Source: an uncultured Fibrobacterota bacterium
GTDB lineage: Bacteria; Fibrobacterota; Chitinivibrionia; Chitinivibrionales; FEN-1185
Direction: 5' to 3'
DNA length: 64,000 nt
Assembly (NCBI GenBank): GCA_963729895.1
Contig: CAVSQB010000023.1
Span: forward strand, 7,594 to 71,593
The notes beneath the pieces were generated by a model. That model did no database searches and was not told the origin of the DNA. It saw nothing but the letters and a program-made list of their open reading frames with translations. Made by a program: the position numbers and the translations under genes. Numbering within the stretch: the stretch's first letter is position 1; each line of letters begins with the position of its first letter. Below are positions 9,335-64,000 of the stretch, one piece after another.

Positions 9335-9439
9335 ATCTTAAGAGTTTGATATTTGGGTGCGCCCGGCAACAGCAATTTCCACTCTTTTCATAATCATTTT
9401 TTCTTGTTTCCCCGGCAATACTATATACTAAATTTCATA

Positions 9440-9455
9440 TGGCACGAAATTTGAT
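9440..9455 (+). promoter_or_regulatory. near-consensus sigma-54 -24/-12 element upstream of rpoN (TGGCAC-N5-TTGAT)
   Basis: TGGCACGAAATTTGAT lies 28 nt upstream of the rpoN ATG. The -24 box is perfect, but the -12 box has GA instead of GC. An AAGGA ribosome-binding site follows. Confidence 0.3.
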
Positions 9456-9482
9456 GCGTTCTGAGCGAAGGATGGATTTTCA

Positions 9483-11866: not shown

Positions 11867-12190
11867 ATGGAAATCCAAATCACCTCACGCCACGAAAAGG
11901 CCTCACAGAGCCTGCAGGACACCATCACGGCCGAATTGGAAGGGCTCCAGAAATTCTACGACCGCATCACCTCGTGCCATGTGATTCTCGACAAGGAGCG
12001 CGGCAAGGAAATCGTGGAGGCCGTGATACACATGGCCGGCCACACGGTTGCAGCCAAGGCCAAGGCCGAGAACCTCGGCAAGGCCATAGACGCGGTAATT
12101 ACCAAAGTGGAACGCCAGCTCAAGAAAATCAACGAGAAAATAAAGAACCACAAGGGCGGCCGGCCCCAAAAAGAAGAGCAGGAAACGTAA
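11867..12190 (+). CDS. hpf: ribosome hibernation promoting factor (short HPF/RaiA family)
   Basis: MEIQITSRHEKASQSLQD... is a typical sigma-54 modulation protein/HPF N-terminus. A GGAGG ribosome-binding site lies 8 nt upstream of the ATG at 11867. Confidence 0.85.
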   Translation: MEIQITSRHEKASQSLQDTITAELEGLQKFYDRITSCHVILDKERGKEIVEAVIHMAGHTVAAKAKAENLGKAIDAVITKVERQLKKINEKIKNHKGGRPQKEEQET

Positions 12191-12296
12191 GCGCCGATTC
12201 GGGCGCACGAGGGAACCACGGCGAAAACAAGCGGACGCCGCACGAAGGCCCTGCGGCCCCGATGGCCGGGAAACCGAAAAAGTACTATAAAATAGT

Positions 12297-12328
12297 TTGA
12301 CAAAAAACTTATTTTACCTGTGAATAAT
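12297..12328 (+). promoter_or_regulatory. candidate sigma-70-type promoter upstream of the MlaD-like gene
   Basis: TTGACA at 12297-12302 is followed after ~18 nt by TGAATAAT. It lies 30 nt before the ORF start. Confidence 0.3.
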
Positions 12329-12357
12329 GAGACAGCCGCTCGTGCCATCGCGAAAGG

Positions 12358-13314
12358 ATGCCCGTGAAAAAGAACAACATGGAATTCACCGTGGGCGGGT
12401 TCATCCTGATTGCGCTCTTCATTCTGATTGCCGGCGTTCTATGGCTCAAGAGCTCCACGCTCACGCGCTCAATGGTTGAATACAGCGTGTTGTTCCCCAA
12501 CATCGGCTCGCTGCAGCAAGGCGATCCGGTGCAGGTGAACGGCGTGCGAAAAGGCGTCGTGGGCTCAATTGCCCTTACCGGGTCCCGCGTCACAGTCGTC
12601 ATCAAGGTTGACAAAAACGTTACGATCACCGATTCGTCCTCCATCACGGTTCAGAACATCGGGCTCATGGGAGAACGAACCGTGGGCATCCAGCTTTCCG
12701 AACACGGGAAACCCATTCATCCGAACACCAAGGGGAAGATCACTTACATTCAGGGGCATTTCGACAGCGGCATTGCCGAAGCAATGGGCATGATCGGCTC
12801 GGTGCTGGGTGATGCGCGTACGCTCCTTGCCAATGTATCGGCCATAGTGGACAGCACGATTGGAGACTCGGCATTCTACGCATCGTTCAAGCACATTGTC
12901 GGGAGGCTCGACACCGTTACGCGGCTCGCGCAAACCCTGGTAAGAGAAAACCGGGGCAAAATCGACAAGAGCCTCACCAACGTCAAGACCGTAACCACCG
13001 ACATGAAAGAACTGCTCGATTCGAACAGGGCCCAAATCAACACCATCGTGTCCAACGGCACCACCCTTTCTTCACGCGCGGTAACGATTGTAGGCACGGT
13101 AGACACCATTACTTCCTCGTTGCAAACTATGGTGAAGAGAATCGAACGCGGCGAAGGTTCGGTGGGCGCGCTTTTGTCCGACGAACAGTTCTACAAAGAT
13201 CTTAAGAAGGCCGTTGCCGATCTTGACGCATTGCTGTCCGAGGTGCAGCAGGACGGCCTCAAGCTCAGGCTCAAGCTCGGGTTCAAGAAGGAGACCAAGA
13301 AGCAGACTCCATGA
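12358..13314 (+). CDS. mlaD: MlaD/MCE-domain outer-membrane lipid asymmetry protein
   Basis: N-terminal TM segment (FTVGGFILIALFILIAGVLWL), followed by an MCE domain (GDPVQVNGVRKGVVGSI) and a long helical C-terminal region. Confidence 0.75.
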   Translation: MPVKKNNMEFTVGGFILIALFILIAGVLWLKSSTLTRSMVEYSVLFPNIGSLQQGDPVQVNGVRKGVVGSIALTGSRVTVVIKVDKNVTITDSSSITVQNIGLMGERTVGIQLSEHGKPIHPNTKGKITYIQGHFDSGIAEAMGMIGSVLGDARTLLANVSAIVDSTIGDSAFYASFKHIVGRLDTVTRLAQTLVRENRGKIDKSLTNVKTVTTDMKELLDSNRAQINTIVSNGTTLSSRAVTIVGTVDTITSSLQTMVKRIERGEGSVGALLSDEQFYKDLKKAVADLDALLSEVQQDGLKLRLKLGFKKETKKQTP

Positions 13315-13577
13315 CACAGCGCGAAGTGTATGTTATAAACCATCTTGGGATCCATGCCCGTCCAGCCTTTCTCATCGTTCAGACTTCCTGTGCGTTCGAT
13401 GCTGATATCTGGCTGGAAAAAGACGGCACAGCCGCAAACGCAAAAAGCGTCCTGAGCGTCATGATGCTTGCCGCGGCGTGCGATTCCAAGATCGTTGTCA
13501 GTGCATCCGGAAAAGACGAAGAAAGGGCCGTTGAGGCCGTTGTGAAGTTGTTTGAGAGCAAGTTCAATGAGGAGTGA
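13311..13577 (+). CDS. ptsH: HPr-family phosphocarrier protein (NPr-like, rpoN-linked)
   Basis: 88 aa with the active-site motif GIHARPA (His15 equivalent) and KSVLSVM (Ser46 region). Confidence 0.85.
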   Translation: MTQREVYVINHLGIHARPAFLIVQTSCAFDADIWLEKDGTAANAKSVLSVMMLAAACDSKIVVSASGKDEERAVEAVVKLFESKFNEE

Positions 13578-13756
13578 GTTTCGATGAGGTAGGATGGTAC
13601 CTGTTGGGGCTTTTCTCGCCCTAACCTCAGCCCCGCATTCTTTCGCCCCGCCTCTGCTATTCAGTCAAGGCAATAATGTATATTCTTACTTCTCCAAGCA
13701 TACTGTCTTACTACGCGGAAAAACAGTGAGTTAAGGATATTGTTGAAGGGAATCAC

Positions 13757-15067
13757 ATGAAGGAGATCAACGTCGGTCTTGTTGGCGCAGGAACCATAGG
13801 CGGCGGCGTGGTGAAGCTGCTTGATCAGAAAGCCTCTTATTTCCGCAACAACCTCGGTCTTTCTCTACGGCTCGCGCGCATCGCCGACAAGGCTGCCGCT
13901 CGCTTTGCGGAGCTGCCTGTGGGGAACGCGGTCTGCACCGAAAACGCCAACGACATTATCGACGACCCGGACATCAACGTCGTCATCGAGCTTGTGGGCG
14001 GCACCACTTTTGCAAAAGACCTGATAATCGCGGCGCTATCCAAAGGGAAACATGTGATAACGGCAAACAAGGCCCTGGTTGCGGAGCACGGTCCGGCCAT
14101 TTTTGAGCTTGCCGAGAAGAACGGTGTGTCCGTGCACTTTGAGGCCTCGGTGGGCGGCGGCATGCCGGTCATCAAAACGATTCGCGAAGCGCTTGTTGCC
14201 AATGAAATCACCATGGTGAAGACCATCATAAATGGTACGTGCAACTACATCCTCGCGCAGATGTCCGAAAAGGGACTCTTGTTCGACACTGCGCTCAAGA
14301 AAGCTCAAAAGAGCGGGTTTGCCGAAGCGGACCCCACGCTTGACATAGGCGGAGGAGACAGCGGACACAAGGTGGCGATCATGGCGTCTCTCATACACGG
14401 CGGCTATGTCCCGATGAGCAAGGTCTTTATAGAGGGTATCACCGATATTTCAAAAGAAGACATCATGTTTGCCCAGGAACTTGGGTACACCATAAAGTTG
14501 CTGGGCATCATCAGGAAATCCCAAGGGGACGATCGAATTGATGTCCGTGTACATCCCGCAATGCTGCACAGCAAGCATATCCTCGCCTCCGTTGGCGATG
14601 TATTCAACGCAGTGCTGCTTGAAGGAAACGCCGTTGGCCCCACGCTCCTATTCGGTCGCGGTGCGGGCGAAATGCCCACCGCATCCTCTGTTGTAAGCGA
14701 TATCATCGATGTCGCGCGGGACATTTCTGCCGGAGTGCCCAAGCGAATTCCCATGAACTATTACCGCCTCGACAACGAAATAAAGGTAAAACCAATCGAC
14801 GAGGTTGTGTCCCGCTACTACCTGTGCTTCTGGGTGTCCGACAAGCCAAAGGTACTTGCCTCAATTGCTACCATACTCGGCAACTACTCAATTTCCATTG
14901 CCTCGGTGCTCCAGAAAGAGTCTACCGAGGAAAGCTGTGTGCCGGTTATCATGCTCACGCACAAAGCGGTTGAAAAGAACGTGCGTGACGCACTCACCGA
15001 GATACAAACAATGGATTATGTGAAGAAAAAAACCCATGTGATAAGAATTTCCGGGCAGATAAAATGA
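13757..15067 (+). CDS. hom: homoserine dehydrogenase
   Basis: N-terminal NAD fold (VGLVGAGTIGGGV), a homoserine dehydrogenase catalytic domain and a C-terminal ACT-like domain. Confidence 0.9.
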   Translation: MKEINVGLVGAGTIGGGVVKLLDQKASYFRNNLGLSLRLARIADKAAARFAELPVGNAVCTENANDIIDDPDINVVIELVGGTTFAKDLIIAALSKGKHVITANKALVAEHGPAIFELAEKNGVSVHFEASVGGGMPVIKTIREALVANEITMVKTIINGTCNYILAQMSEKGLLFDTALKKAQKSGFAEADPTLDIGGGDSGHKVAIMASLIHGGYVPMSKVFIEGITDISKEDIMFAQELGYTIKLLGIIRKSQGDDRIDVRVHPAMLHSKHILASVGDVFNAVLLEGNAVGPTLLFGRGAGEMPTASSVVSDIIDVARDISAGVPKRIPMNYYRLDNEIKVKPIDEVVSRYYLCFWVSDKPKVLASIATILGNYSISIASVLQKESTEESCVPVIMLTHKAVEKNVRDALTEIQTMDYVKKKTHVIRISGQIK

Positions 15068-15117
15068 GGAGGCAATAGTCGAATAAACAACCACGGCCGC
15101 AGGCCGTGGTCCACGCC

Positions 15118-15150
15118 GGAAAATCCCGAAGGGTTTTCCTCCGATCTTTT
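15118..15150 (+). terminator. hairpin plus T-tract between hom and thrC (terminator or attenuator)
   Basis: GGAAAATCCCGAAGGGTTTTCC is followed by TCCGATCTTTT. A second hairpin, CCACGGCCGCAGGCCGTGG, lies at 15091-15109. Confidence 0.45.
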
Positions 15151-15197
15151 GACCGGACAACGTTTGATCTTCACGAAAGAAAAAGGACCGTTGCACT

Positions 15198-16544
15198 ATG
15201 AAAAAGCCATACCTCAGAGCTTTCGGCGGCGGTGAACAGACCTATCCCGTTTCCGAAATCCGTTACCGCAGCAGTGACGGCCGCACGCTCGAAGTTGACA
15301 ACTGCATTGCCGCCATGGATGCAAAAAAAGCTGCGGCCCTGCGCAGGATTTTCGATACCCGGCTTATGTCGCGCAAGCCGCTGGATAGGAGCGGCGTGTG
15401 GCGGTACAGGGAGTTTTTGCCCGCGTTCAAGCCGTTCGATGCCGTGGTGACCATGTTTGAGGGAAACACCGCTATCTTCAGCATGCCAAAATGTGCGCGC
15501 TACTGCGGCATGCAGTACCTTCTTGCAAAGCACCAAGGGCTCAACCCGACCGGATCGTTCAAAGACAACGGTATGACTGCGGCGGTCACCATGGCCAAGA
15601 AGCTCGGCGCAAAAATGGTCGCCTGCGCCTCAACCGGCAACACCTCCGCGTCCATGGCAGCGTATGCCGCGCGCGCAGGCCTCAAGAGCATCGTATTCAT
15701 TCCTGATGGCCAGATCGCCTATGGCAAGCTCTCGCAGTCTCTCGATTACGGCGCCCTCACCATCCAGATCGCAGGCGATTTCGACAAGGCAATGGAGATC
15801 GTGGAGGACCTGTGCGGCCGCGGCGCACTATACCTTCTCAATTCGATCAATCCGTTCCGCATCGAAGGCCAGAAGACCATCATGATCGAAATGCTGCACC
15901 AGCTTGGTTGGGAAGCGCCCGACTGGGTGATTGTCCCGGGCGGCAATCTGGGAAATTCCAGCTCGTTCGGCAAGGCGTTTGACGAAATGGTCAGGTCGAG
16001 ATTCATCAAGAAAGTCCCGAAAATCGCGATTATCCAGGCGCAAGGGGCCAATCCGCTGTACAACAGTTTTGTTTCGGGAGACAGGAACCTGCACCCGGTG
16101 CATGCAAACACCCGGGCAACCGCGATAAAGATCGGCAACCCTGTGAGCTTCGACAAGGCCTTGTTCGCCGTCGATTCTACCGGCGGCACGGTGGAGCAGG
16201 TGACCGAAGAGGAAATCGCGCTTGCCAAGAGTGTCATCGGAACCGACGGCGTGGGCTCCGAGCCGGCTTCGGCCACCACGGTTGCGGGATGCAGGAAACT
16301 TGTCGCAAAGGGAATAATCAACAAGTCCGATACCGCAGTCTGCATCCTTACCGGACATCTGCTCAAAGACCCGGATTACACGGTTGAGTTCCATCGCGAT
16401 GAACTGTACCTCGATGCGCAGCGGGCGACAACATTGTCCGGCACGGAGCGTATTTCCACAGGCGGTTTGAGCAACCGGCCCGTGAAACTGCCGGCGGATA
16501 AGGGTGAGATTATGAAGTATATAGATTCATGGGCGAAAAAATAA
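15198..16544 (+). CDS. thrC: threonine synthase
   Basis: PLP-lysine motif PTGSFKDNG and a long-form ThrC architecture. It lies downstream of hom. Confidence 0.9.
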   Translation: MKKPYLRAFGGGEQTYPVSEIRYRSSDGRTLEVDNCIAAMDAKKAAALRRIFDTRLMSRKPLDRSGVWRYREFLPAFKPFDAVVTMFEGNTAIFSMPKCARYCGMQYLLAKHQGLNPTGSFKDNGMTAAVTMAKKLGAKMVACASTGNTSASMAAYAARAGLKSIVFIPDGQIAYGKLSQSLDYGALTIQIAGDFDKAMEIVEDLCGRGALYLLNSINPFRIEGQKTIMIEMLHQLGWEAPDWVIVPGGNLGNSSSFGKAFDEMVRSRFIKKVPKIAIIQAQGANPLYNSFVSGDRNLHPVHANTRATAIKIGNPVSFDKALFAVDSTGGTVEQVTEEEIALAKSVIGTDGVGSEPASATTVAGCRKLVAKGIINKSDTAVCILTGHLLKDPDYTVEFHRDELYLDAQRATTLSGTERISTGGLSNRPVKLPADKGEIMKYIDSWAKK

Positions 16545-47663: not shown

Positions 47664-48935
47664 TCAAAGGCCGGCTCTTTTCGGCGTTCCCAATTGACCG
47701 GTGGATGTTCCAGGGTAAAGTTGACTTATGAGCGTCTGAGCGGCGCTCCAGTTTCTTCCATAATTATTGTACGCGGGATCCGCGGAAAGGGAATCAAGAA
47801 CAATTGATTTCTTCGCCGTGCCGAGATTCGGCCACTCCTGGTCGTTGCTTCCGCCCGCGAATGCCACCCAATCCATTACCGTGTCTCCACCCGCCCTGGA
47901 ACGAAGGGAAAGCCAGTTTCCGCCCGATGACAGATCGAGCGCAGAGGAAACGGAGCTGAAAACATCCGCCCAGGGCAGGCTTCTCCTGCCGATCACAAAG
48001 AAGGCCTTTGGCCCGATTGAAACAACTCCATATGGGCGGCACGTACCGTCGATTTCTACAAACAGGGAATCGTTGTAGGTTGCACCGGCGGGATTGTAAA
48101 CCTCAACGTATTCCGAATCGTTCGCATTATACATTATCTCCGAAATGATGAGGCGGCCGGTTTCAAAGGCGATTGTGTTCTGGCTGCCTACGCTTCCCGA
48201 CACCACCGTTATTCCCGGCATTTGAGCGGTCACGGAAATAGTCGCACCCGTTGTCACCCTGTAGAAACTGCCGGACACGCTCGTGTCCTGCAAAACGGAA
48301 AAAACAAGCCAGAGTGCGGACCTGTACACAACAGTTCCGGCCGTATCCGTTCCTTCGATTACCAGGGAATCGCTTGTCTTATCGGGCACGTCATCGATAC
48401 TCAAGTAGAGTTTTGTCGACCTGTTTGCGCAAGATGAAAGTCCGTCGAATGAAGCACAAACACTCAAAACGCTGGTGGGTATGTTGGAAAGGTCTATGTA
48501 AATGGATCCCAGGACTGGAACCAACGTGAAATCCAGCGTTTTTACTTCTGAAGGTGAAATGTCGACAACTTGCGGTGTTGTAGTATGAATGACGAGGTTA
48601 TTCTTTGTTTTCGTAAAGACGGTGAACGCCCGTTTTTTTCCGGCAGGAACGTTTTCCACAGACGCGGAAATGTATGGATCGGAAGGACTGAACTTGAATG
48701 AAAGCATCATGGTGTCCATGTCGTTTCCGGTTATCATTACCACGAGGCTGTCCCAGGTTGTTTCCTCAGTCGCCTGCGTCTTTGCCAGGACATTCTGCGT
48801 TTGCGTCTTAGCAAGCGAGGCCCAGATTTCAGCACTTCCGGTTTTGGATTTTGAATAACCGGAGGGGTTGTTGGCGCACGAGGACAAAACCAGTAATGCA
48901 CCTGCCGCGAATCCCGCCACCCATTGCTTCTTCAT
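47664..48935 (-). CDS. lipoprotein with C-terminal lamin-tail domain (LTD)
   Basis: The ATG at 48935 has an AAGGAGAG ribosome-binding site. Lipobox LVLSSC. The LTD signature is LIISEIMYNANDSEYVEVYNP...GNWLSL. Confidence 0.7.
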   Translation of the reverse strand: MKKQWVAGFAAGALLVLSSCANNPSGYSKSKTGSAEIWASLAKTQTQNVLAKTQATEETTWDSLVVMITGNDMDTMMLSFKFSPSDPYISASVENVPAGKKRAFTVFTKTKNNLVIHTTTPQVVDISPSEVKTLDFTLVPVLGSIYIDLSNIPTSVLSVCASFDGLSSCANRSTKLYLSIDDVPDKTSDSLVIEGTDTAGTVVYRSALWLVFSVLQDTSVSGSFYRVTTGATISVTAQMPGITVVSGSVGSQNTIAFETGRLIISEIMYNANDSEYVEVYNPAGATYNDSLFVEIDGTCRPYGVVSIGPKAFFVIGRRSLPWADVFSSVSSALDLSSGGNWLSLRSRAGGDTVMDWVAFAGGSNDQEWPNLGTAKKSIVLDSLSADPAYNNYGRNWSAAQTLISQLYPGTSTGQLGTPKRAGL

Positions 48936-49097: not shown

Positions 49098-49113
49098 TGT
49101 GACGGCCGTCACA
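49098..49113. promoter_or_regulatory. CRP/FNR-family-type operator TGTGACGGCCGTCACA upstream of the LTD gene
   Basis: A perfect 16-nt palindrome matching TGTGA-N6-TCACA, about 170 nt upstream of the 48935 start. Confidence 0.6.
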
Positions 49114-49241
49114 TTTCCAGGCCACAGAAGCATTTCTGCGACAGTACAGTAAGGAAAGGCAAGATTAGATGCTCTAAGAACAGCAGGGGAAAAACCAGAG
49201 CCAAAGCATTAAAATTGTTAGAATGGGCTGATCCGCGGCGG

Positions 49242-50309
49242 CTACGGAAACAAGGCTATCCGTGCCGTCCCGGGACTTCCGTTGGCAGATGATACTCTGA
49301 CCACAAATACTCCACTCGTTCCAAGTGGTTGGTCCAAGACGCAAAGGGCTGTTTTTGAATCTTTCATTCTCCAAAGGAGATTTCGCACAAGCCGGCCGTC
49401 CACCGTGAAGATGCCGATCCCGGTGGGCGGCCATGAACCGGCGGGGCAATCGACAATGACTGCGCGCCTAAAGCCGCCGAGGGCATTTTGAATGACAACC
49501 CTGGAGGATGAGGCCGTCTGAAACATGGGCGCGGAAACGACCGGCTCACCGCTCCCTTCTTTTGAGAGAAGCGTGATTTCCGAATCGGACATTGCGCGAT
49601 TGTAAAGCCTGATATCGTCGATGAGCCCGCAAAAGCACTTTGCGGCCGTAAAAACGTCCGTCCCGAAATAGGTGGTCCTGTTGTTGGTGGACAACTTCGC
49701 ATCCGGGATCGATGCGGTTACCTGCCCGGCAGGCACTCCGTCCACAAAGAACGCAAGAATTGGTTTTTCCCATTCTACGGCCGCACAGTGCCATCCCGTG
49801 TCGTACTCGACAAAGGGCAAGACCAAGAGTTCGGTATCCGTGTTGTTGCTCACGATCGCGACCGCTTCCAGACGGCGGCACGGCTTCCCGAGTGAATCCG
49901 TGCTATTCGCGATAGTGAGCGATACTTCGCGTCTCTCGCCGGTGTTGGACAGCTCGTAGGCGTCCCAGAGGTAGCGCGGATCGGCAGTGATTTTTGAGCA
50001 CGCATCCGCGTCGTACCAGCCGGAAATAACCGCGCTGTCGCGAGGCAGGTTGAAGGAGGACTTGTTCGGAATAAGGATAAAATCGTCCACTCCGTCAAGA
50101 TTGCAGGCCAGCCCGCTCCCATTCCTGCCGGCAACAAAGGGAGTAGGGTTTGTTACAAAAAGTTTGCCGTCATTGAGTGCATGACCCGTAGAGTCGTTGG
50201 CATTGCCGTTGAACGGATACCATGCTGCAAGTCCTGCGGTCGGTACCTGAGCAACCGACACGGCAACGGCAAACATGCAAAAGAGGGAATACTTGATTAC
50301 GTGTCTCAT
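49242..50309 (-). CDS. secreted LamG/concanavalin-A-like lectin-domain protein with C-terminal beta-sandwich sorting-like domain
   Basis: Signal peptide, then a LamG-type motif (FNGNANDSTGH...LDGVDDFI...DDIRLYNRAMS). The C-terminal ~80 aa resemble T9SS-type C-terminal domains (tentative). Confidence 0.6.
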   Translation of the reverse strand: MRHVIKYSLFCMFAVAVSVAQVPTAGLAAWYPFNGNANDSTGHALNDGKLFVTNPTPFVAGRNGSGLACNLDGVDDFILIPNKSSFNLPRDSAVISGWYDADACSKITADPRYLWDAYELSNTGERREVSLTIANSTDSLGKPCRRLEAVAIVSNNTDTELLVLPFVEYDTGWHCAAVEWEKPILAFFVDGVPAGQVTASIPDAKLSTNNRTTYFGTDVFTAAKCFCGLIDDIRLYNRAMSDSEITLLSKEGSGEPVVSAPMFQTASSSRVVIQNALGGFRRAVIVDCPAGSWPPTGIGIFTVDGRLVRNLLWRMKDSKTALCVLDQPLGTSGVFVVRVSSANGSPGTARIALFP

Positions 50310-50344
50310 CTAGGTTCCAAATATAAGAAAACCGGGCTGTTTTT

Positions 50345-50386
50345 TCCTGAAAATAGAAGCAGGGGCAAACCTTGAGGCGCCCCTGC
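50345..50386 (-). terminator. Rho-independent terminator after hcp
   Basis: The stem GCAGGGGC...GCCCCTGC is followed on the minus strand by TTCTATTTTC. Confidence 0.6.
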
Positions 50387-50425
50387 AATCGATCTCGCGA
50401 CCGTGAACCGGTGTGCAGTACTACA

Positions 50426-50926
50426 CTATGCCTTGCCGCCTTCTTTTCCTTCTGCCCACGAATCGGAAGCCTGAAGGTTGCCGTCGAGAAATGTCCAGGT
50501 GATCTTGCGGTACCGCAGGCTCACATCTTCCATGTGCGTATAGCGCTCTTTGGTGGGATCTTTCACATGGGGCATGATTGCCTTGACCGAGCAGACCTTG
50601 ACGCCCTCCAGCTTGTGGTTAAAATATTCCTTTTCGCTGCCGGTGTCATCGATGTTGTACCACTTGAACTCCGCGGTCTTGAAAGTCTCTCCCTCGCACA
50701 CCGCCTTGTACAGGTACGGTGAGGACGCGTCGAAAGCCTTGACAAACGTCAAAGATTCGTGCTTGCGGGTTCCGGTGAGGCGTCCGGTATCCGGATCGGT
50801 GGGAATCCGGACTTCGTGATGGAATTCGAGCACCTCAATGCTGCCCTCGCGGTGGGCAACGTCGACTGAGCCTTTTACGTCGGCCCCTGTTTCATTTTTG
50901 ATCCACAAATATGCTGCAATTGGCAT
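50426..50926 (-). CDS. hcp: type VI secretion tube protein Hcp (TssD)
   Basis: 166 aa. MPIAAYLWIK...GSIEVLEFHHEV...TFVKAFDASSPYLY is the canonical Hcp1-family pattern. Confidence 0.9.
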   Translation of the reverse strand: MPIAAYLWIKNETGADVKGSVDVAHREGSIEVLEFHHEVRIPTDPDTGRLTGTRKHESLTFVKAFDASSPYLYKAVCEGETFKTAEFKWYNIDDTGSEKEYFNHKLEGVKVCSVKAIMPHVKDPTKERYTHMEDVSLRYRKITWTFLDGNLQASDSWAEGKEGGKA

Positions 50927-51012
50927 ACAAGACTCCTTTCACATTGTAAAGTTTAAGCGGTAGTGTACTTTCGGCCACCGAGAAAAATATACAAACACAC
51001 GCGCTGCCCGTT

Positions 51013-51028
51013 TGTGACGTACGTCACA
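51013..51028. promoter_or_regulatory. CRP/FNR-family-type operator TGTGACGTACGTCACA upstream of hcp (core of a 30-nt perfect palindrome, 51006-51035)
   Basis: GCCCGTTTGTGACGTACGTCACAAACGGGC lies about 95 nt upstream of the hcp ATG and 10 nt after the tssC stop. Confidence 0.55.
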
Positions 51029-51044
51029 AACGGGCATTTTTCTT

Positions 51045-52565
51045 TTATTTCCCTTTCGGCATCTGGGACACAAGCGACAGGTTGATGTCGATGCCTTCGA
51101 TTTGGAAATGCGGCATGACCGAGAGGCTTACCCTGAAAAATCCGGGGTTGTCCTCGATTTCATTCACCGTGACTTCCGCGGCCTTGAGCGGATGCGTTGA
51201 AATCAGGTCCGGACCCGGGTCGTTCATTTCGGTGACAAGGCCCTTTATCCATCCGTTGAGTTCGTTCTGGAGCACGACTTTGTTCTTGGTAGACCCGATG
51301 TTCTCCCTCTGGATTACTTTGAGATAGTGTGCAATCCTTGATATAAGGAAAATGTACGGAAGGCGCGAATTGATGCGCATATTCGCGGTTATCATCGGGT
51401 TGTCGTATTCGGCGGGCTTCTGGGTCGAGTTCGCCGAGAAGAAGCAGGCGTAATTCCGGTTCTTGTAGAACGAGAGCGGTATGAATCCTTCCTGGGCAAA
51501 CTCGAATTCCCTGGTCTCGGGAATAAGGATTTCCGTCGGAATCTTCATCTGTTTGCCTTTTCCCACATCGTAAATATGAACAGGCAGGTCTTCCACTTTT
51601 CCGCCGGCCTCGGGTCCGCGAATCTGGACGCACCACCCGTTTTCTACATAGGACCGTACCATGTTGGCGGCAAACGCAAAGGTCGAGTTGCCCCACAGAT
51701 ACTTATCGTGGTCCGTTCCCCTCACGTTCTCGGTGTAGTTGAATTCCTTCACCGGCTGCGTATCCGGGCCGTAGGGAAGGCGAAGCATAAACCGGGGAAG
51801 CATGAGGCCGACGTAACGTGCGTCTTCGGTCTGGCGGAAAGAATTCCATTTGAGAAACTCGGACCGCTCCATGTAGTTATGCAGGTCCTCGATCTTGGTA
51901 AGGTCGTGAATGGTTTCCTTGCCGAAAAATTTCGGGCTCGCAGTTCCCAGAAACGGGCAATGGCATGCCGCGGAAACTTTTGAAACGCTTTGCAGCAGCG
52001 TGATGTCCGATGGGCCGCTGTCGAATTCAAAGTTAGACACAATCGAACCGTACGGCTCGCCGCCGGGCGTATCATATTCGCTCACGTACACATGCTTGTA
52101 AAGACCCGACTGGATGGTTTCCGGCGCGTCTTCGAAGTCCTCGGCGAGGTCGTCCTTTGATACGTCGAGAATATCAAGTTTCGCATTCTTCTTGAAATCG
52201 ATTCGGTCCACAAGGAACTTGAGGCTCCGCCACGAGGCTTCCATCTTCTGAAAATTGGCGTGATGCATGATCTCGTCGAGCTGGAGCGACAGCTTCCTGT
52301 CGATTTCGCCGATGTGATGGTCCAGCATCGCCTTGTCGATCTTGTCGACGTTCTGGGTGGTTGCCGCCACGCCGTCCACAAACACTGCGAGCGCCGCACT
52401 TATGCGCTCGTTGGCGTCACTGTCGGCGAGTACTTCGGTGTTCTTGTACTCCGATATATCAACTTTCTTCTTCGGAATCGAAAGGTTCATTGTCTGATAG
52501 ATGTATTCGAGGCCGTGGGCGTCCTGCGCCTGCTTTCCGGCTGCTTCTTTTTCTTGTTCTGCCAT
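51045..52565 (-). CDS. tssC: type VI secretion contractile sheath large subunit TssC (VipB)
   Basis: 506 aa with DUF877-type sequence throughout (e.g. CHCPFLGTASP, WGNSTFAFAANM, PLSFYKNRNYACFFSA). Confidence 0.9.
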   Translation of the reverse strand: MAEQEKEAAGKQAQDAHGLEYIYQTMNLSIPKKKVDISEYKNTEVLADSDANERISAALAVFVDGVAATTQNVDKIDKAMLDHHIGEIDRKLSLQLDEIMHHANFQKMEASWRSLKFLVDRIDFKKNAKLDILDVSKDDLAEDFEDAPETIQSGLYKHVYVSEYDTPGGEPYGSIVSNFEFDSGPSDITLLQSVSKVSAACHCPFLGTASPKFFGKETIHDLTKIEDLHNYMERSEFLKWNSFRQTEDARYVGLMLPRFMLRLPYGPDTQPVKEFNYTENVRGTDHDKYLWGNSTFAFAANMVRSYVENGWCVQIRGPEAGGKVEDLPVHIYDVGKGKQMKIPTEILIPETREFEFAQEGFIPLSFYKNRNYACFFSANSTQKPAEYDNPMITANMRINSRLPYIFLISRIAHYLKVIQRENIGSTKNKVVLQNELNGWIKGLVTEMNDPGPDLISTHPLKAAEVTVNEIEDNPGFFRVSLSVMPHFQIEGIDINLSLVSQMPKGK

Positions 52566-52619
52566 AAGTGTATACTCCTCGTTTTAGTGTGAACGATTGC
52601 TACGCAAGGAGGCGGCGCC

Positions 52620-53117
52620 TCACTTCTGTTCCTCCGCCACGACCTTCTTGAGCTCCTCCTGCAGGGATTTCATTGCCTCAGGGTTCTTGATGATTTCCTC
52701 AAGGCGCTTGCGGAATTCCCTGTTATCGAGCAGGTTGGATTTCAGGTCCTTAAGCAGATTTCTTGCGGCAAGCAGCTTGGACAGCGCGGGGATGCTCTTG
52801 GCGACGTTTTCCGGTTTGAACGAATCCATGTTTTTCACGTTCAGGTCAACTTTCAGGTCTCCTGTGCCGGTAAGTTTGTTTTCAACATTGTAGTTGAGCT
52901 TCAGGTCCATGCTTTCCATGACCTGGGTGAAGTTTTCCTTGTTGATGCTTATCTTTTCGCGGTCGGAGACCCGATCGCTGTGCTTCTGAAAGGAGAAGTC
53001 GCCGACGACAAGCGTTTTGAGGGGCAATTCGATTTTCTTCTTCGCGTTGCCCTTGCCGACATCAAGCTTAAGGTTAATTCGGGCAGGGGGAATTTCATTT
53101 TGAAAACTGCCGGCCAT
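52620..53117 (-). CDS. tssB: type VI secretion contractile sheath small subunit TssB (VipA)
   Basis: 165 aa. ...PPARINLKLDV...IELPLKTLVVGDFS... is the canonical TssB N-terminus. Confidence 0.9.
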   Translation of the reverse strand: MAGSFQNEIPPARINLKLDVGKGNAKKKIELPLKTLVVGDFSFQKHSDRVSDREKISINKENFTQVMESMDLKLNYNVENKLTGTGDLKVDLNVKNMDSFKPENVAKSIPALSKLLAARNLLKDLKSNLLDNREFRKRLEEIIKNPEAMKSLQEELKKVVAEEQK

Positions 53118-53239
53118 AGGAACCTACCTTTCTGAGAGGTGATTATTACCTGATTCCGTGAGATAAGGTTATTAAAAACAAATTGACGGCGTTGACAAGA
53201 ACGAATATGGTTGCTAAGGCTTCTTGATAAGTTGTTGCC

Positions 53240-54740
53240 GGGGTGATTCCACTATGATTTGCGCTTCTGACCCCATGGTTGACAAATACACTCAACGTGT
53301 CGGTGGCGACGTTTGTTTGGTTACGGGTCTATTTCCGTTTATTGCTCTCCTTAGGTCAGCCATCCGTGGCGAACGCCAGATACGTTTGCGTCCACGCTAT
53401 GCGGAGTTGATTCCGCCGCGACAGGGCAAGCATCAACCGGCGGGCATGCGTTATCACGCGTGCTGCTATGTACATAAGATCCTGAATGACCTTCCGCAAT
53501 CTCCGGCGTGCAACTTTCTTACGCGGCACGTACCCCTTGTCGATTCCAACTTGGCCGCAGAGCCGCAGCATGTTGAACGCAAGAACCGCCAACGTCAACA
53601 CCAATGCGTTGGTCGTGAACTTCCCGCTGGGAAGCCGCTCCAGCGCCATATCACTCTTCAGCTCCGAGTGAAACTGCTCGCTGGTGCCATGATCCCGGTA
53701 CGCTGCAATAACGTCGTCCGGGCCGGCGTTGCGTCTGCTCAGGCTCGTCCACCACGTGTGAACCTCTACATCCGGCAGCAGCAAGGCGTTTCCGTCGCGG
53801 TCGATTGTCCGTTCGATCACCTCGAACACAACGCGCATGTTTTCGCCGTTTCTTTCCCGTATTGTCTCACCAACGTACACGGTCTTGCCTTCACGAGGAT
53901 GACGCCAGTCACCGAGCGCTTGAGCATCCACGAGCCATTCGTCAATAGATTCCCTGCGTATGTTCCGTTTGATTATGTAATCGACCTTTTCCTTGCGGCA
54001 GACTCGCATGTTTTCAATATCGTCATGTCCGGCATCAAGACGCACAAGGATCGAACGATCCGTTATTTTTCGAGCAAGGGCTATGGTCTTGCGCAGAAAC
54101 TCCGGAGTTCCTTCCTGGCAATGTTGTTTCCCTTCGCGCAACTCCGCGTTCAGCAGGTAGCCTTCCACGCCTATGTAGGCAAGCATCGGAGAATATCCCT
54201 CGAACAACTTGTACGTGCAGCTTACGCCTTCCTTATGAGAACCACTGTTGTCAAAAGGAGATACGTCAGCGTCAATCGGAATATACGGTCCAAAGCAGGC
54301 GGTGAGCCGTGGCGCTGCTTTTTTCAACAGGGACGCCGAAGCGGAAAGGACTGCGTTTTGAACGGTCAGGCCCGTTTCGTCCATTCGCTGCCGCAGTGTA
54401 GCCTCGGAAGGAACCGCTTTCAATCCAAGCATCTCCTGAAAATAGTCGTCTTCACGAAACTGCTCGACCCCGTCAAAGTCTGGTTTGGCAAGACACAAAA
54501 GCCCCGTCATGGTCAGCAGCGCGTCCGCGGTGCTTATACTCCCGCTCTTCTTGTCCGGAGTAACCTGCGAAACACGCTCGCGCAAACCGGATCGCTCCGC
54601 AAGCATCCCGATCATTGCCATTCCACCATGGCTGGTCAGAAACTCGTCCGTCTCCGTGATTATCAACTTTCTCGGCTTTGGCATGACACCTTCCGGGTGA
54701 ATAATGTGAACTGCCATTTAGTCAAGCACCATTCACCCTT
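53240..54740 (-). mobile_element. IS1380/IS4-like insertion sequence between tssA and tssB (ends approximate)
   Basis: A single DDE transposase gene fills the tssA-tssB spacer. Possible imperfect terminal repeats are GGGGTGATTCC (53240) and GGGTGAATGG (reverse complement, about 54738). I saw no clear target duplication. Confidence 0.6.
53356..54717 (-). CDS. DDE transposase, IS1380-family-like
   Basis: 453 aa. Acidic-residue candidates are IPIDADVSPFDN, VRLDAGHD and the C-terminal YRDHGTSEQFHSELKSD (Y-R-E-K type motif). The family call is from memory of similar proteins. Confidence 0.7.
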   Translation of the reverse strand: MAVHIIHPEGVMPKPRKLIITETDEFLTSHGGMAMIGMLAERSGLRERVSQVTPDKKSGSISTADALLTMTGLLCLAKPDFDGVEQFREDDYFQEMLGLKAVPSEATLRQRMDETGLTVQNAVLSASASLLKKAAPRLTACFGPYIPIDADVSPFDNSGSHKEGVSCTYKLFEGYSPMLAYIGVEGYLLNAELREGKQHCQEGTPEFLRKTIALARKITDRSILVRLDAGHDDIENMRVCRKEKVDYIIKRNIRRESIDEWLVDAQALGDWRHPREGKTVYVGETIRERNGENMRVVFEVIERTIDRDGNALLLPDVEVHTWWTSLSRRNAGPDDVIAAYRDHGTSEQFHSELKSDMALERLPSGKFTTNALVLTLAVLAFNMLRLCGQVGIDKGYVPRKKVARRRLRKVIQDLMYIAARVITHARRLMLALSRRNQLRIAWTQTYLAFATDG

Positions 54741-54778
54741 AATCTACACGAAAAATCATCAAAATGCCAAAGTTTTTC

Positions 54779-56347
54779 TCACGGATTTAGGTATGAGTTA
54801 AGCGAAAATGCCTTTTTGGGATCTATTTGACTGATCTTGCTTACGATTGCGTTCTGTTTCTCGGTCATGCTCGCTTGAAGCGGAGGGGGTTTGTTCGCCC
54901 GTGCCGCTTTGAGTACCTTTACCATGATGCCCCAGGCCTCCACCGAAAGATCGGGGTCCCACTTGTCGAGGTGGTACAGCTGTATCTTGTCCGAAAGCGA
55001 GTCAAGAATCGACAGGGCAATGTCGGGCTGCTTGACCGACATGAGCAGCGTGCACACGAGAATGGAGCGACGGAAGTTGTCCCGCTCGTTTGACGAATTG
55101 CGAATTGCATTCTGCAACAAATCAAGCGCGGCCTCGGTTTTACCCGACGAGGCAAGCTGCGTAACCTCCCGTTTCTCGTTCTCCACTTTGTCACCTGATT
55201 CTGCCGAGTCCTTTTTCGAGGCGGCCTCCTCATGGGAGAAGACCGGCATCACGACCTTTACAATCCAATCCCTGGTGGCGTCATCGCAAAAGGGGAAGCC
55301 GTCGGAGAAAGACAGCGCGGTGATGCCGGGCAACCGCTTTACAAAAAGGCCGGTTTCAGCCACGATGGCCTGCTCCACCGGTTTGTACGGTTCGCCGAGG
55401 CCCTGGCATGCCTGAGCCGCCACGCGCTGAAGGCCAAGCCACAGGTGATTGGCCCCTGCCGTGAACGCGACCTCTTCTTTGTCAAGTGCCGCCTTAAATT
55501 CCTTGTTTGCAATCAGCGTGTTCAGCGAAGCGACCAAGTCCGCCGCGGGCGGGGCAAGCTGGGTCTTGCCGTTTTCACTCGGGGGCTCTTTTTCGAAGAT
55601 GTCCCACCGGATGGAGCGGATGAGACGGAACCCCATCGGCCTCTGCGGTTCTTTCTCAATAAGAAAGTACGCCGCCTTACGGGCGATGGCCTGGGCCTGC
55701 TTTGGCGTATCCATCGGATCGCCCGCGGTCTGGCCGGCTGCGGCAGAGCCCGGTGCGGCATCCGCCTTGGGTTTCGGTTTGCACGACTTTTCCCAGTTTT
55801 GTACCGCCGTGTAAAGCCCGGACGGGAAGGGCGAACCTTCGGGAAATTTCTCCTGCAGAATGCCCCGAAGCACGGTGAGGCCGGCCAGCAGCCTGCCGAT
55901 GTGGGCATAATCGGCTTCTTCGGGTTTTTGGGACGCAATGGTTTCGTTGTACCGCGGTTCGGACAGCCACTTGAGCGCGTTCTGCTTTGCCCGGTCGCGG
56001 TCCGGAAACATCGCATCGTAGTTCTGCTTGCACAGTGCGGCGAACCCTTCAAAAATATCCGCGAACGGTTCCCATTTTCCATCGCGAAGATACACGAGAC
56101 TCAGGAAACAGAGCAGCCTCATGTCCTTGGATTTTTCCGCAAGGAGTTTTCTGCACGACGAATCAACAAGCGCGTAATCGATGCTGCCGATCTTCCCAAT
56201 TTCGGTTTTGCACGCGTCAAAATCGGCATCGTAGTTGATGTTGACGCCCATCGGGGCATCGCCGGGAATGGGCTTTACTATAATGTCAAGAAGCTCGGAA
56301 ATGGCATTTCCCCTTGGATACTGGTATCGGATCGCTGCCAAACACAA
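54779..56347 (-). CDS. tssA: type VI secretion protein TssA (ImpA N-terminal domain)
   Basis: N-terminal PIPGDAPMGVNINYDADFD matches the ImpA_N signature (PI..e.P.G.dl.yd..f). 522 aa with a helical C-terminal half. Confidence 0.8.
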   Translation of the reverse strand: MCLAAIRYQYPRGNAISELLDIIVKPIPGDAPMGVNINYDADFDACKTEIGKIGSIDYALVDSSCRKLLAEKSKDMRLLCFLSLVYLRDGKWEPFADIFEGFAALCKQNYDAMFPDRDRAKQNALKWLSEPRYNETIASQKPEEADYAHIGRLLAGLTVLRGILQEKFPEGSPFPSGLYTAVQNWEKSCKPKPKADAAPGSAAAGQTAGDPMDTPKQAQAIARKAAYFLIEKEPQRPMGFRLIRSIRWDIFEKEPPSENGKTQLAPPAADLVASLNTLIANKEFKAALDKEEVAFTAGANHLWLGLQRVAAQACQGLGEPYKPVEQAIVAETGLFVKRLPGITALSFSDGFPFCDDATRDWIVKVVMPVFSHEEAASKKDSAESGDKVENEKREVTQLASSGKTEAALDLLQNAIRNSSNERDNFRRSILVCTLLMSVKQPDIALSILDSLSDKIQLYHLDKWDPDLSVEAWGIMVKVLKAARANKPPPLQASMTEKQNAIVSKISQIDPKKAFSLNSYLNP

Positions 56348-56450
56348 AACTAAAATATAGTAATCGCACTATGGCACAATAGTCTTTTCGATGACAAATG
56401 ACCGGGCGCAGCAGGCCTGCTGCAAGATAAATCATTCGGCGCCTCCGTGA

Positions 56451-56466
56451 TGTGACGGCCATCACA
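56451..56466. promoter_or_regulatory. CRP/FNR-family-type operator TGTGACGGCCATCACA upstream of tssA
   Basis: Perfect TGTGA-N6-TCACA half-sites about 110 nt upstream of the tssA ATG. It differs by 1 nt from the site at 49098. Confidence 0.6.
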
Positions 56467-57116: not shown

Positions 57117-57953
57117 TTACTTGATGTTCTGAATAAACAAGGCAAGCTTTGCCCGTGACGCGGGATTTCTGAACAGTTTCCGCAGTGATCGATCCCGAAT
57201 GAGCCGCACGCGTTCGCGGGTCAGTTTGAGTTCCTTGCCGATTTCTTCGAGAGTGAATTGTTTGGAGAAGTTGAGGCCGTAATACATTCGCAGTATGCGC
57301 TCTTCCCTGCTTGTAATGTTCTGCAGCACGCTGTCGATTACTTTGCCGAGTTCCCTCCGTTCGCTCTCGGTATCCTGGTTTGGATCGTCGCCGAGAATGT
57401 CCTGCAGCGTTTTCGTGGAATCGCCTTCCGAACCTTGGTTGTTGCCCACCGGTGCATCGAGCGATACGCCCCGAAGTTTGTCCATGACGTCGATGATGTC
57501 CTGCTCGTGCTCCTTGAAATCGTCCATGGAAATCGTTCCCATGTAGTCGCCGGAGTTCTTGTCGAGGGCCTTCTTGAATTTCGAAAGAAGCGCGATTTTG
57601 TTGGGAGGAATGCGCACGGTTCCCGTTTGCTCGAATAACGCTTTCTGAATCGACTGGCGTATCCACCACACTGCATAGGAAATAAACTTGACTTTGTTCT
57701 CGAGGTTGAAGCGCTTTGCGGCTTTTAACAGACCGATATTGCCTTCGTTAATAAGCTCGAGGAAACTCAGGCCTCTGCCCCGGTACCGCCTGGCGACACT
57801 CACGACAAACCTGAGGTTGCTCGTAATGAGAACGGTTATTGCGTTATGGTCGCTCTTTTGAACGCAACGAATAACCTCGCGCTCTTCGTCTTCGGATAGA
57901 ATCCGATAACGGTTGATGTCCCTAAAGTAGAGGGTTTCGGTTCTTGTCGGCAT
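57117..57953 (-). CDS. sigma-70 family RNA polymerase sigma factor (group 2/3-like, 278 aa)
   Basis: Region 2 (NLRFVVSVARRYRGRGLSFLELINEGNIGLLKAAKRF, YAVWWIRQSI), region 3, and region 4.2 (FTLEEIGKELKLTRERVRLI). Confidence 0.85.
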   Translation of the reverse strand: MPTRTETLYFRDINRYRILSEDEEREVIRCVQKSDHNAITVLITSNLRFVVSVARRYRGRGLSFLELINEGNIGLLKAAKRFNLENKVKFISYAVWWIRQSIQKALFEQTGTVRIPPNKIALLSKFKKALDKNSGDYMGTISMDDFKEHEQDIIDVMDKLRGVSLDAPVGNNQGSEGDSTKTLQDILGDDPNQDTESERRELGKVIDSVLQNITSREERILRMYYGLNFSKQFTLEEIGKELKLTRERVRLIRDRSLRKLFRNPASRAKLALFIQNIK

Positions 57954-62546: not shown

Positions 62547-63530
62547 ATGCTTGCCAAGCTCCGATCCATGTCGGTCATAGGCATCGACGCATTTGAAATC
62601 GGCATCGAGGCCGACATCACGGAGATGCTCCCGAGTTTCACCATTGTAGGCCTTCCCGACGGCGCCGTACGGGAGAGCCGCGAACGGGTGATGTCGGCCA
62701 TCAAGAACTGCGGCTTCGAATTCCCCAGCCGCAAGGTGACGATCAACATGGCTCCCGCAGATGTCAAGAAAGAAGGCTCGGCCTTCGACCTGCCTATCGC
62801 CATCGGGCTTCTCATGGCCTCAAATCAGGTGGACATCACCTCGACGCAGGATTACATGGTAGTGGGCGAGTTGTCGCTTGACGGATCGGTACGGCAGGTG
62901 AAGGGCATGCTGTCGATGGCCATTTGCGCGCGCGAACTCGGCATCAAGGGCATGATCGTCCCTCAGCAGAACGCCGAGGAAGCGGCCGTGGCCGAGGGTC
63001 TCGACATTTTCCCGGTATCCAGCTTGTCGGCCGCGCTTGAATTTCTTGCCGGCGGCCGAACCATAGAACCCTTCCGGATAGATCTGAAAGACCTGTTCAA
63101 CCGATCCCGCGAGTACGCGATCGATTTTCGTGACGTCAAGGGCCAGGAACATGTCAAGCGCGCCTTGCTCGTTGCCGCGTCCGGCGGCCACAACATCATT
63201 ATGGTTGGAAGCCCGGGAACGGGGAAAACAATGCTGTCCCGGCGGCTGCCCACCATATTGCCCGATCTTACCCTTGATGAGGCGCTGGAGACGACGAAAA
63301 TCCATTCCGTGGCGGGTATGCTTGATCGCAACACCCCGCTTCTGGCCACCCGGCCGTTTCGCTCGCCGCACCACACCATATCCGATGCGGGCCTCATCGG
63401 CGGCGGATCGTACCCGCGTCCGGGCGAAGTGAGCCTGTCTCACCACGGCGTTCTGTTCCTCGACGAATTACCGGAATTCACGAAGAATGTCCTGGAGAAC
63501 CCCCGACAGCCGACCTCTGTGTGGAATTAA
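62547..63530 (+). pseudogene. comM: comM/yifB (Mg-chelatase-like AAA+ protein), truncated after about residue 320
   Basis: The N-terminal Lon-protease-like domain and the AAA+ Walker A (GSPGTGKTM) and Walker B ([10 protein letters not shown]) motifs are intact. Homology stops near 63510 (..VLENPRQP then TSVWN-stop), and full-length proteins are about 500 aa. GC content drops downstream. Confidence 0.75.
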
Positions 63531-63807
63531 GATCCGCAAAATTGCCTGTTTCCGAGTAAAAACCTCGATTTTCAAAAGAGATCGCTATTGGGACTGTAGG
63601 CGAATCCCCTCTTCTAGAGCCGCTAAAACCCTTGGAATCTCGGTGAAAACTCTTAAGAATCGAGAAAGAAGAGGATTCTACCCTCCGCGCAAAAGGCATC
63701 CACATAGCTACTACCGGTATTATTCGCCGGAGGAAATCGAGGAGCTGAAGAAAATCAATAGGAAAAACAAAACCGCAATAAAAACGAGAAGGCATTTAAC
63801 AAGATGA
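63487..63807 (+). CDS. small MerR/excisionase-type HTH protein in the inserted DNA (start uncertain)
   Basis: [23 protein letters not shown]...[13 protein letters not shown] is a typical excisionase/MerR-like HTH followed by a wing. The only in-frame ATG overlaps the comM remnant. Confidence 0.4.
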
Positions 63808-63833
63808 ACAAGGTAACCGTTGGTTTATCCAAC

Positions 63834-64000
63834 CTATTTCCCTTCATAACGAGTTGGAAGGGCAATGTCAAATCTCCTGGCAATTTCACGGGCTGTTTTT
63901 CCCGCTGGCACTGGTGTATATTGCTTGAATACCTCATTCTTACCATAATCTATTAAGAACGTAATAGATAATGAAAGTGAACCTGCTGCACATCCTCCAA
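63834..64000 (-). CDS. 3' end of a gene running in from outside the window; C-terminal HTH (recombinase/regulator-like)
   Basis: This frame is open to the window edge and is absent from the ORF track because it has no Met inside the window. It ends ...PAGKTAREIARRFDIALPTRYEGK-stop (TAG complement at 63834-63836). Confidence 0.3.
   Translation of the reverse strand, partial: GGCAAGSLSLSITFLIDYGKNEVFKQYTPVPAGKTAREIARRFDIALPTRYEGK

Follow-up and report, generated by a model that had tools for sequence, protein, structure and literature searches.

The 64-kb stretch of DNA analysed here (the window) comes from an uncultured bacterium of the Chitinivibrionales (Fibrobacterota) and contains a stand-alone module of type VI secretion system (T6SS) genes, tssA-tssB-tssC-hcp, together with three copies of the palindrome TGTGA-N6-TCACA, which are the subject of this report. 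Read in the direction of transcription, and with every gene on the minus strand, the locus runs from an NTP-transferase gene through a sigma factor gene and a DUF498-like gene to site 3 and tssA, continues through an element of the IS1380 family to tssB, tssC, site 2 and hcp, and ends with a Laminin_G_3 gene, site 1 and the gene of a lipoprotein with a weak match to the Lamin-tail domain (LTD). The T6SS core families pass curated cutoffs, both in Pfam (VipA, VipB, T6SS_HCP, ImpA_N and T6SS_VasJ) and in NCBIfam (TIGR03362 with 294.6 bits, cutoff 230; TIGR03344 with 164 bits, cutoff 58.9), and sequence of the window is present in metagenome DNA runs from soil, peat, wetland and freshwater sediment. 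Each of the three sites lies between co-directional minus-strand genes and is thereby also just 3' of a gene (DUF498-like for site 3, tssC for site 2, Laminin_G_3 for site 1), so that explanations at the RNA level are weighed here beside that of a DNA operator. The sites and the features of the module are as follows.

56451-56466, minus strand: site 3, TGTGATGGCCGTCACA (sense), proposed activator site of the tssA promoter P1 (motif scan)
56424-56429, minus strand: -10-like TATCTT, 21 nt downstream of site 3; transcription start (+1) predicted near 56417
54779-56302, minus strand: tssA (TIGR03362; ImpA_N and T6SS_VasJ), probable AUU start at 56302 (codon 56300-56302)
52620-53117, minus strand: tssB (VipA), small sheath subunit (Pfam)
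51045-52565, minus strand: tssC (VipB), large sheath subunit (Pfam); query for the search for relatives
51037-51041, minus strand: A-tract, AAAAA in the sense orientation, 8-14 nt before site 2 (about -57 to -63)
51013-51028, minus strand: site 2, TGTGACGTACGTCACA, proposed activator site of the hcp promoter (motif scan and footprint)
51005-51036, minus strand: 14-bp stem with a 4-nt loop around site 2, one T-A pair longer than the palindrome
50983-50991, minus strand: -10-like box TATATTTTT, 21 nt downstream of site 2
50426-50926, minus strand: hcp (tssD), tube protein (Pfam and NCBIfam)
49098-49113, minus strand: site 1, TGTGACGGCCGTCACA, a perfect 16-nt palindrome followed by CCTGTTTTGC (motif scan)

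An initial annotation of the window had reported exactly three perfect matches to TGTGA-N6-TCACA and no other full match in the 64 kb, and both statements are borne out: the matches occupy 49098-49113, 51013-51028 and 56451-56466, the number expected from dinucleotide shuffles is 0.05, none of 100 shuffles reached three, and tolerating one mismatch adds no further site. A scan of the 64 kb with a position weight matrix (PWM) built from 23 orthologous sites finds nothing else above shuffle level either: the three sites score 23.7-25.0 bits, and the runner-up, which lies inside coding sequence, scores 11.3 bits. The sites are indeed nearly identical, at 13-15 of 16 positions in pairwise comparison where 14 of 16 had been given. 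Their distances upstream of the start codons, put at 95-170 nt, were roughly right: site 2 lies 87 nt from the hcp ATG measured from its edge (94 nt from its centre), site 1 163 nt from the LTD ATG at 48935, and site 3 either 104 nt from the TTG start of the longest tssA open reading frame (ORF) or 149 nt from the probable AUU start. The assignments of tssA, hcp and the LTD lipoprotein gene were also correct, with TIGR03362 above its cutoff and a weak match for the LTD. Not mentioned in that annotation were the 30-nt palindrome around site 2 and the IS1380-family element between tssA and tssBC. The palindrome has the two-fold symmetry of an operator of the CRP/FNR family, with half-sites one helical turn apart, and is the commonly used CRP consensus (PMC4581735), which it matches also at positions 6 (Y) and 11 (R).

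With TssC as the query, a search of GTDB species representatives returned about 40 Fibrobacterota loci, all in metagenome-assembled genomes (MAGs) of Chitinivibrionales/Chitinispirillaceae, with TssC identities of 72-94% and GC contents of 33-64%; the other matches belong to Proteobacteria and Bacteroidota, at about 60% identity. Also recovered were near-identical contigs and a lineage, L081 and L138, that is about 94% identical to the window in DNA. The block conserved among these relatives is tssA-tssB-tssC-hcp alone, flanked by genes that differ from locus to locus; tssE-M, vgrG and clpV occur neither within the window nor within 10 kb on either side of the module in relatives, and no transcription factor is conserved among the neighbours of the module there.

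Among the 37 Chitinivibrionales loci that have the tssC-hcp gene pair, 22 carry a perfect site between the two genes, and the loci with an hcp site span GC contents of 33-57% and TssC identities of about 78-94%. Upstream of tssA a perfect site occupies the same place in six relatives, the closest only (L081, L138, L092 and L001-L003), and more distant relatives have no site upstream of this gene. The half-sites TGTGA and TCACA show no change in any of 23 orthologous hcp sites or 7 tssA sites; the N6 spacer of the hcp sites varies freely and is frequently not self-complementary. The Fibrobacterota loci, 646 kb in all, contain 27 perfect sites, every one at a tssA, hcp or (in the window only) LTD position, and 13 matches with one mismatch where about 17 are expected, which is chance frequency; no site was found in any of about 40 non-Fibrobacterota T6SS loci. 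Within the DNA available, this distribution suggests an operator whose regulon is small and centred on the module, unlike that of a dense global regulator.

Three elements stand in register with the hcp site: the A-tract upstream, a TAnnTT box (mostly TATATTTT) downstream, and a strong Shine-Dalgarno sequence. The A-tract is kept in all 23 orthologous hcp sites regardless of the distance to the tssC stop, and the box begins 21-22 nt past the site in 31 of 34 sites; it is missing at that distance from site 1, both in the window and in L081, and from the hcp site of L021, where CATATT comes close. The centre of the site is 80-100 nt from the hcp ATG (with one outlier at 120 nt) and the tssC stop 13-123 nt from the site; the site is anchored to hcp, not to tssC. 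If TAnnTT is taken as the -10 element, the site is centred at -41.5 and the A-tract falls at about -57 to -63, where we propose that it may serve as an UP-like element or as a docking element for the C-terminal domain of the RNA polymerase alpha subunit (alpha-CTD). In the window this predicts an hcp transcription start near 50979 and a 5' untranslated region of about 53 nt, with AAAGGAG as the Shine-Dalgarno sequence. Between site and -10 box the 23 orthologues have no conserved -35-like hexamer, either TTGACA or the Bacteroidota-type TTTG. In L006, L013 and L021 a canonical terminator (GC stem and T-run) stands between tssC and the A-tract and site, so that hcp must have its own promoter there, and A-tract, site and box are the sole conserved candidate elements for it. 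As promoter elements of the plus strand the sites were considered and rejected, there being no -10-like box at 21-22 nt on that side.

Upstream of tssA, site 3 begins 4 nt past the stop codon of the DUF498-like gene. The box downstream of the tssA sites in relatives is TATCTT, TATTTT, TAGTTT or TATATT, again at 21-22 nt, and the 21 nt between site 3 and its box, like most of the surrounding intergenic DNA, are not conserved.

We hold it probable, though by no means certain, that the palindromes are operators of a CRP-like homodimeric helix-turn-helix (HTH) regulator that acts by class II activation at hcp and tssA, and that site 2 is also a hairpin. Such a regulator would recognise the half-site TGTGAY, with the two half-sites one helical turn apart, and at hcp (site 2) and tssA (site 3) it would sit about 41.5 bp upstream of the predicted transcription start, in a layout of A-tract, site, 21-22 nt and TAnnTT -10 box with no conserved -35 element. 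Once bound, it would stand in for the -35 contact and recruit RNA polymerase, as in class II activation, so that one signal would switch on the synthesis of tube (Hcp) and cap/sheath (TssA-TssBC) together. Site 2 would in addition be transcribed at the end of tssC, where a hairpin with covarying flanks would terminate or protect the tssABC message; site 1 might bind the same protein as a roadblock or repressor site, or might be a weak terminator after the hcp-LamG unit. Direct observation covers the motif, how it is conserved and spaced, the covariation of its flanks and its confinement to the module; from these we infer binding by the CRP/FNR family, activation over repression, and the positions of the transcription starts.

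Several observations weigh against this reading. Fifteen of the 37 tssC-hcp loci have no site at all, and the loci are phylogenetically related, so that the counts overstate the number of independent observations. Upstream of tssA there is a second conserved block (alignment A2, columns 140-175), kept in the window, L081, L001-L003 and L092, in which an inverted repeat, TTGC-N6-GCAA, abuts a second TATATT box about 45 nt upstream of the AUU start:

56352-56382, minus strand: second conserved block, cTTGCnnTAnnGCnATTAC-TATATTTT

This block may be a second promoter or operator (P2), with a possible transcription start near 56347, and because a promoter-like block lies nearer to tssA, site 3 may not control the main tssA promoter. 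Site 1 lacks a TAnnTT box at 21-22 nt and so misfits the promoter model. Pfam scans of some 53 ORFs, essentially all those of the window, found no cNMP_binding/HTH_Crp_2 protein, in agreement with the initial annotation, which had held that the gene of the regulator is not in the window; the sole trace there is a sub-threshold HTH_Crp_2 match inside a sigma-54 DNA-binding domain. Nor is a CRP/FNR gene conserved beside the module in relatives, and phmmer searches with E. coli CRP and FNR queries found no regulator in the six-frame ORFs of the window and of 80 loci. Lastly, some RNA contigs of relatives run from tssC into hcp across the site uninterrupted, which means that co-transcription of tssC and hcp occurs.

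These contigs were assembled from peat, permafrost and wetland metatranscriptomes, in which contigs of relatives cover tssB, tssC, hcp and the LTD gene; the module is thus expressed in situ in relatives, and the LTD gene in L092. The hcp region of the window itself was found in no RNA run. One RNA contig identical to L092 has its end 3-6 nt away from the hcp start predicted here, and two contigs of the tssC 3' region end inside the site, although contig ends are not RNA ends.

Instead of an activator, the sites might bind a repressor, of the CRP/FNR family or of another dimeric HTH family, which would occlude the -35 region of otherwise constitutive promoters and act as a roadblock at site 1. 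The position of the sites, at about -49 to -34, does overlap that at which RNA polymerase binds, and site 1, lying 3' of the hcp-LamG unit with no -10 box of its own, fits a roadblock; T6SS are, moreover, often kept off until needed. Against this, the lack of a conserved -35-like hexamer in the 23 orthologues is typical of activator-dependent promoters, and the A-tract upstream, at about -60, fits the docking of alpha-CTD at class II promoters. The missing -35 element and the conserved upstream A-tract together favour activation over repression, and we regard repression as unlikely.

A second alternative places the function wholly in the RNA: the palindromes would be intercistronic hairpins that terminate, attenuate, process or stabilise read-through transcripts (DUF498-tssA, tssC-hcp and LamG-LTD), and the AU-rich box would be a cleavage site. 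It accords with the position of all three sites between co-directional genes, with the RNA contigs that span the intergenic region, and above all with the structure of site 2, which is the centre of a 30-nt perfect palindrome, GCCCGTTTGTGACGTACGTCACAAACGGGC. The resulting 14-bp stem has a folding energy of -27.6 kcal/mol (z -4.7), and its flanks covary, as is directly observed in the 23 orthologous hcp sites: the flanking 7-8 pairs are formed in about 70% of alignment cells by many pair types, and their covariation score of 0.33 (0.16 in shuffles) was reached in none of 500 shuffles and is far above slid controls. Between the window and L081 there is a compensatory C-G to T-A change in the stem, and G-U pairs outnumber A-C pairs in the flanks by 25 to 8, an excess that favours folding of the sense transcript. 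A simple terminator scan flags sites 1 and 2, and loci without the motif still bear a GC hairpin 3' of tssC.

There is also evidence against a role in RNA alone. Selection for structure should give compensated variation, yet TGTGA and TCACA stay invariant while the flanks covary; in about half of the orthologues only the core stem is present (5-6 bp, -4 to -9 kcal/mol); and sites 1 and 3 fold no better than shuffles (z -0.97 and -0.22). True terminators, where they occur, are separate elements upstream of the site, as in L006, L013 and L021, where the site is distant from tssC and has no extended stem, and the element as a whole keeps its distance to hcp and the TAnnTT box, not to the tssC stop. 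An exclusive role in RNA therefore seems to us quite improbable. Rfam covariance models gave no match near any site and two sub-threshold chance matches elsewhere.

That the palindromes share no function, being chance occurrences or copies of a short mobile or repetitive element like repetitive extragenic palindromes (REPs) or miniature inverted-repeat transposable elements (MITEs), is scarcely credible: although the lineage of the window has two insertion sequences and a hotspot of insertion close to the module, three sites would arise by chance with a probability far below 1e-3, the three copies have only the 16-nt core in common and unrelated flanks, the orthologous conservation of the hcp and tssA sites extends across an order, and neither the 64 kb nor the 646 kb of relatives contain further copies.

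Within the activator reading, the part played by the hairpin of site 2 can be stated more closely. It shares with intrinsic terminators and stabilising hairpins a GC-rich 14-bp stem right after tssC and covarying flanks. It differs from intrinsic terminators in its invariant core and in the lack, in the window, of a U-tract directly after the stem on the sense strand, where the strong stem is followed by a U-rich run only some 10 nt later, and sites 1 and 3 are not strong hairpins; A-tract, stem and T-run together read as a terminator on the antisense strand, and in low-GC relatives a T-run does follow the stem. The hairpin is probably the terminator, or a 3' hairpin, of tssABC. The simplest reading is that two functions meet after tssC. 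One is the end structure of tssABC (terminator or 3' hairpin), the other an hcp promoter that depends on an activator; in some lineages, that of the window among them, the palindrome of the operator would have been lengthened and would double as the hairpin. As a whole, the proposal that a CRP-like activator runs a small T6-centred regulon and that its hcp operator is double-coded, serving as DNA for regulator binding at the hcp promoter and as RNA for the terminator or 3' hairpin of tssABC, is offered tentatively, since we judge it possible and no better than that. If true, the termination of the sheath genes and the activation of the tube gene would be physically fused, and the separate elements of relatives would show the route by which the fusion evolved.

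Site 1 stands apart from the other two. The remaining features around the sites are as follows.

DUF498-like gene, minus strand: upstream neighbour of site 3; 192-aa protein with a weak DUF498 match
53147-54791, minus strand: IS1380-family element, with transposase at 53356-54717 (453 aa; NF033539, 352 bits)
49242-50309, minus strand: Laminin_G_3 (concanavalin-like) protein, 355 aa, between hcp and the LTD gene
47664-48935, minus strand: LTD lipoprotein gene, 423 aa, with an MKKQW...LSSC lipobox and a weak Lamin-tail-domain match

The nearest -10-like hexamer to site 1, TAAAAT at 27 nt, is not kept in L081, and the site itself is confined to the window, identical contigs and L081, being absent from relatives at 87-94% TssC identity. 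As RNA it is a weak 6-bp stem followed by CCTGTTTT. It was also considered as a duplicate of the hcp or tssA promoter region, and rejected because the flanks are unrelated. Site 1 may be a terminator-like element, a roadblock or repressor site, or a newly arisen site; it is not a promoter element equivalent to the others.

In eight other loci (L003, L006, L009, L019, L020, L021, L040 and L044) the LTD gene directly follows hcp, from which the Laminin_G_3 gene appears to be an insertion of this lineage and site 1 to be recent. The LTD lipoproteins have some 420-460 aa across loci, and may be an uncharacterised component or cargo associated with the T6SS. In L081 a 3.4-kb insertion (11937-15382 of that locus, corresponding to point 48986/48987 of the window) separates site 1 from the LTD gene, about 50 nt upstream of the start codon, and carries small ORFs and an IS1595-family transposase gene.

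The initial annotation had seen in the three sites equivalent operators of a local T6 regulon under a dedicated CRP/FNR-family regulator. The regulon stands in so far as the motif is restricted to the module and has class II spacing at hcp and tssA; it does not extend securely to the LTD gene, and equivalence was overstated, given that the LTD site has no promoter geometry and is missing from relatives of 87-94% TssC identity. For the regulator, motif and geometry point to the CRP/FNR family. The first-position G of the GTGA core distinguishes the targets of CRP recognition helices from those of FNR, and on this ground a CRP-like rather than an FNR-like specificity is suggested. Whole genomes would be needed to support the word "dedicated". 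In the metagenome contig L200 the same architecture (3395-3500, minus strand) precedes an unrelated lipoprotein gene: an A-tract, TGTGACCGTCGTCACA, 21 nt, TATATTTT and a Shine-Dalgarno sequence stand before the gene of a surface lipoprotein with DUF5018 repeats. This protein has more than 1131 aa and, in segments that recur along it, shows 52-64% identity to the product of an ORF close to hcp in L006; upstream there are genes of glycoside hydrolases. It is possible that the L200 gene is a further member of the regulon. A metagenome-wide scan for TGTGAY-N4-RTCACA-N20-22-TATATTT gave at least 120 matches; among the matches listed, most were from unrelated organisms and two were hcp loci, so the scan, the lead to L200 excepted, is uninformative on the regulon.

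The one match in the search for a regulator lies in the flank of another locus, L017, and is a 785-aa fusion (9392-11746, minus strand) of a cyclic-nucleotide-binding domain with acetate kinase and phosphate propanoyltransferase (PTAC). Cyclic-nucleotide sensing exists in the group.

The proposed promoters resemble class II CRP promoters of E. coli (-41.5, galP1-type) in having the same core, including the TGTGAY/RTCACA preference, 21-22 nt to a -10-like box, no conserved -35 element and, upstream, AT-rich DNA at the place of alpha-CTD docking. They differ in that E. coli CRP is a global regulator whose sites are spread, whereas the Fibrobacterota sites are confined to the T6 module in the DNA available, and in that the Fibrobacterota case comes from an uncultured bacterium. 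Cyanobacterial NtcA promoters offer a further likeness: canonically they have GTAN8TAC centred near -41.5, followed by a -10 box TAN3T (PMC3898017), and they share with the sites here the TGT-N10-ACA spacing, a distance of about 22 nt to the TAnnnT-type box and the lack of a -35 element. The Fibrobacterota half-site is nevertheless the CRP-like TGTGA and not the GTA of NtcA, and phylum and target genes are others.

In respect of the T6SS the nearest parallel is Vibrio cholerae, for which Ishikawa and co-workers reportedly described in 2009 a CRP-dependent expression of hcp and the T6SS. Vibrio CRP is a global regulator that acts with sigma-54/VasH, HapR, TfoX and CytR. In both cases a CRP-type regulator would be tied to the expression of hcp and the T6SS in a chitin-associated bacterium, with the link here suggested by the motif; by contrast with Vibrio cholerae, the proposed Fibrobacterota hcp promoter combines a -10 box of the sigma-70 type with a perfectly conserved site directly at the predicted -41.5, and only the module has such sites in the DNA available. 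The regulation of the T6SS in Vibrio cholerae is treated in PMC4581735 and PMC7554612. In the literature searched we found nothing on T6SS or their regulation in Fibrobacterota beyond incidental mention.

What emerges is a precise promoter model for Chitinivibrionales of peat and wetland, in which an A-tract, TGTGAY-N4-RTCACA, a gap of 21-22 nt and TAnnTT precede the tube and cap/sheath genes, with a motif that can serve to find the full regulon and the regulator in whole MAGs. Knowledge of CRP-type regulation is left unchanged. This would be an ordinary kind of switch in a little-studied group; the unusual aspects are the lineage, the apparent confinement to the tube-sheath module, and the double use of operator and hairpin.

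The tssA gene of the Chitinivibrionales appears to begin at a conserved AUU codon. In the window this codon is preceded, 6 nt upstream, by the Shine-Dalgarno sequence AAGGGGA (6-9 nt across relatives); ATT stands at the orthologous start in 21 of 35 Chitinivibrionales loci, several others having ATC there or ATT one codon upstream, and 15 of the 21 ATT loci lack any ATG, GTG or TTG from the in-frame upstream stop codon up to the ATT. Canonical starts downstream of the AUU would shorten the ImpA_N domain, and gene callers mis-start tssA at 487 aa or 522 aa in place of 507 aa. An AUU start suggests a deliberately low, or IF3-sensitive, translation of the cap protein; in our literature search nothing was found on an AUU start of tssA.

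At the other end of tssA, the IS1380-family element lies exactly at the stop codon, where it adds a few codons and puts 1.6 kb between tssA and tssBC. L081, L138 and L001-L003 do not have it; in this strain it may be polar on the expression of the sheath genes.

Beyond tssA-tssB-tssC-hcp, relatives share with the window the LTD lipoprotein gene (in 9 loci) and the sigma factor gene, which stands beside the module in 17 loci at 68-97% identity. The sigma factor (57117-57953 of the window, minus strand) is an RpoD/RpoS-like protein of 278 aa without region 1.1; it may be the primary sigma factor of the group, as in Bacteroidota, and for its own gene a promoter-like site of the extended -10 type was found.

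At the right end of the window (62547-64000) a comM-like Mg-chelatase gene, which in L081 is complete with 513 aa, ends prematurely after about 327 codons and is followed by a MerR/excisionase-like HTH ORF (63487-63807). The gene comM is a known integration hotspot, and what lies here looks like an integrative element inserted into it.

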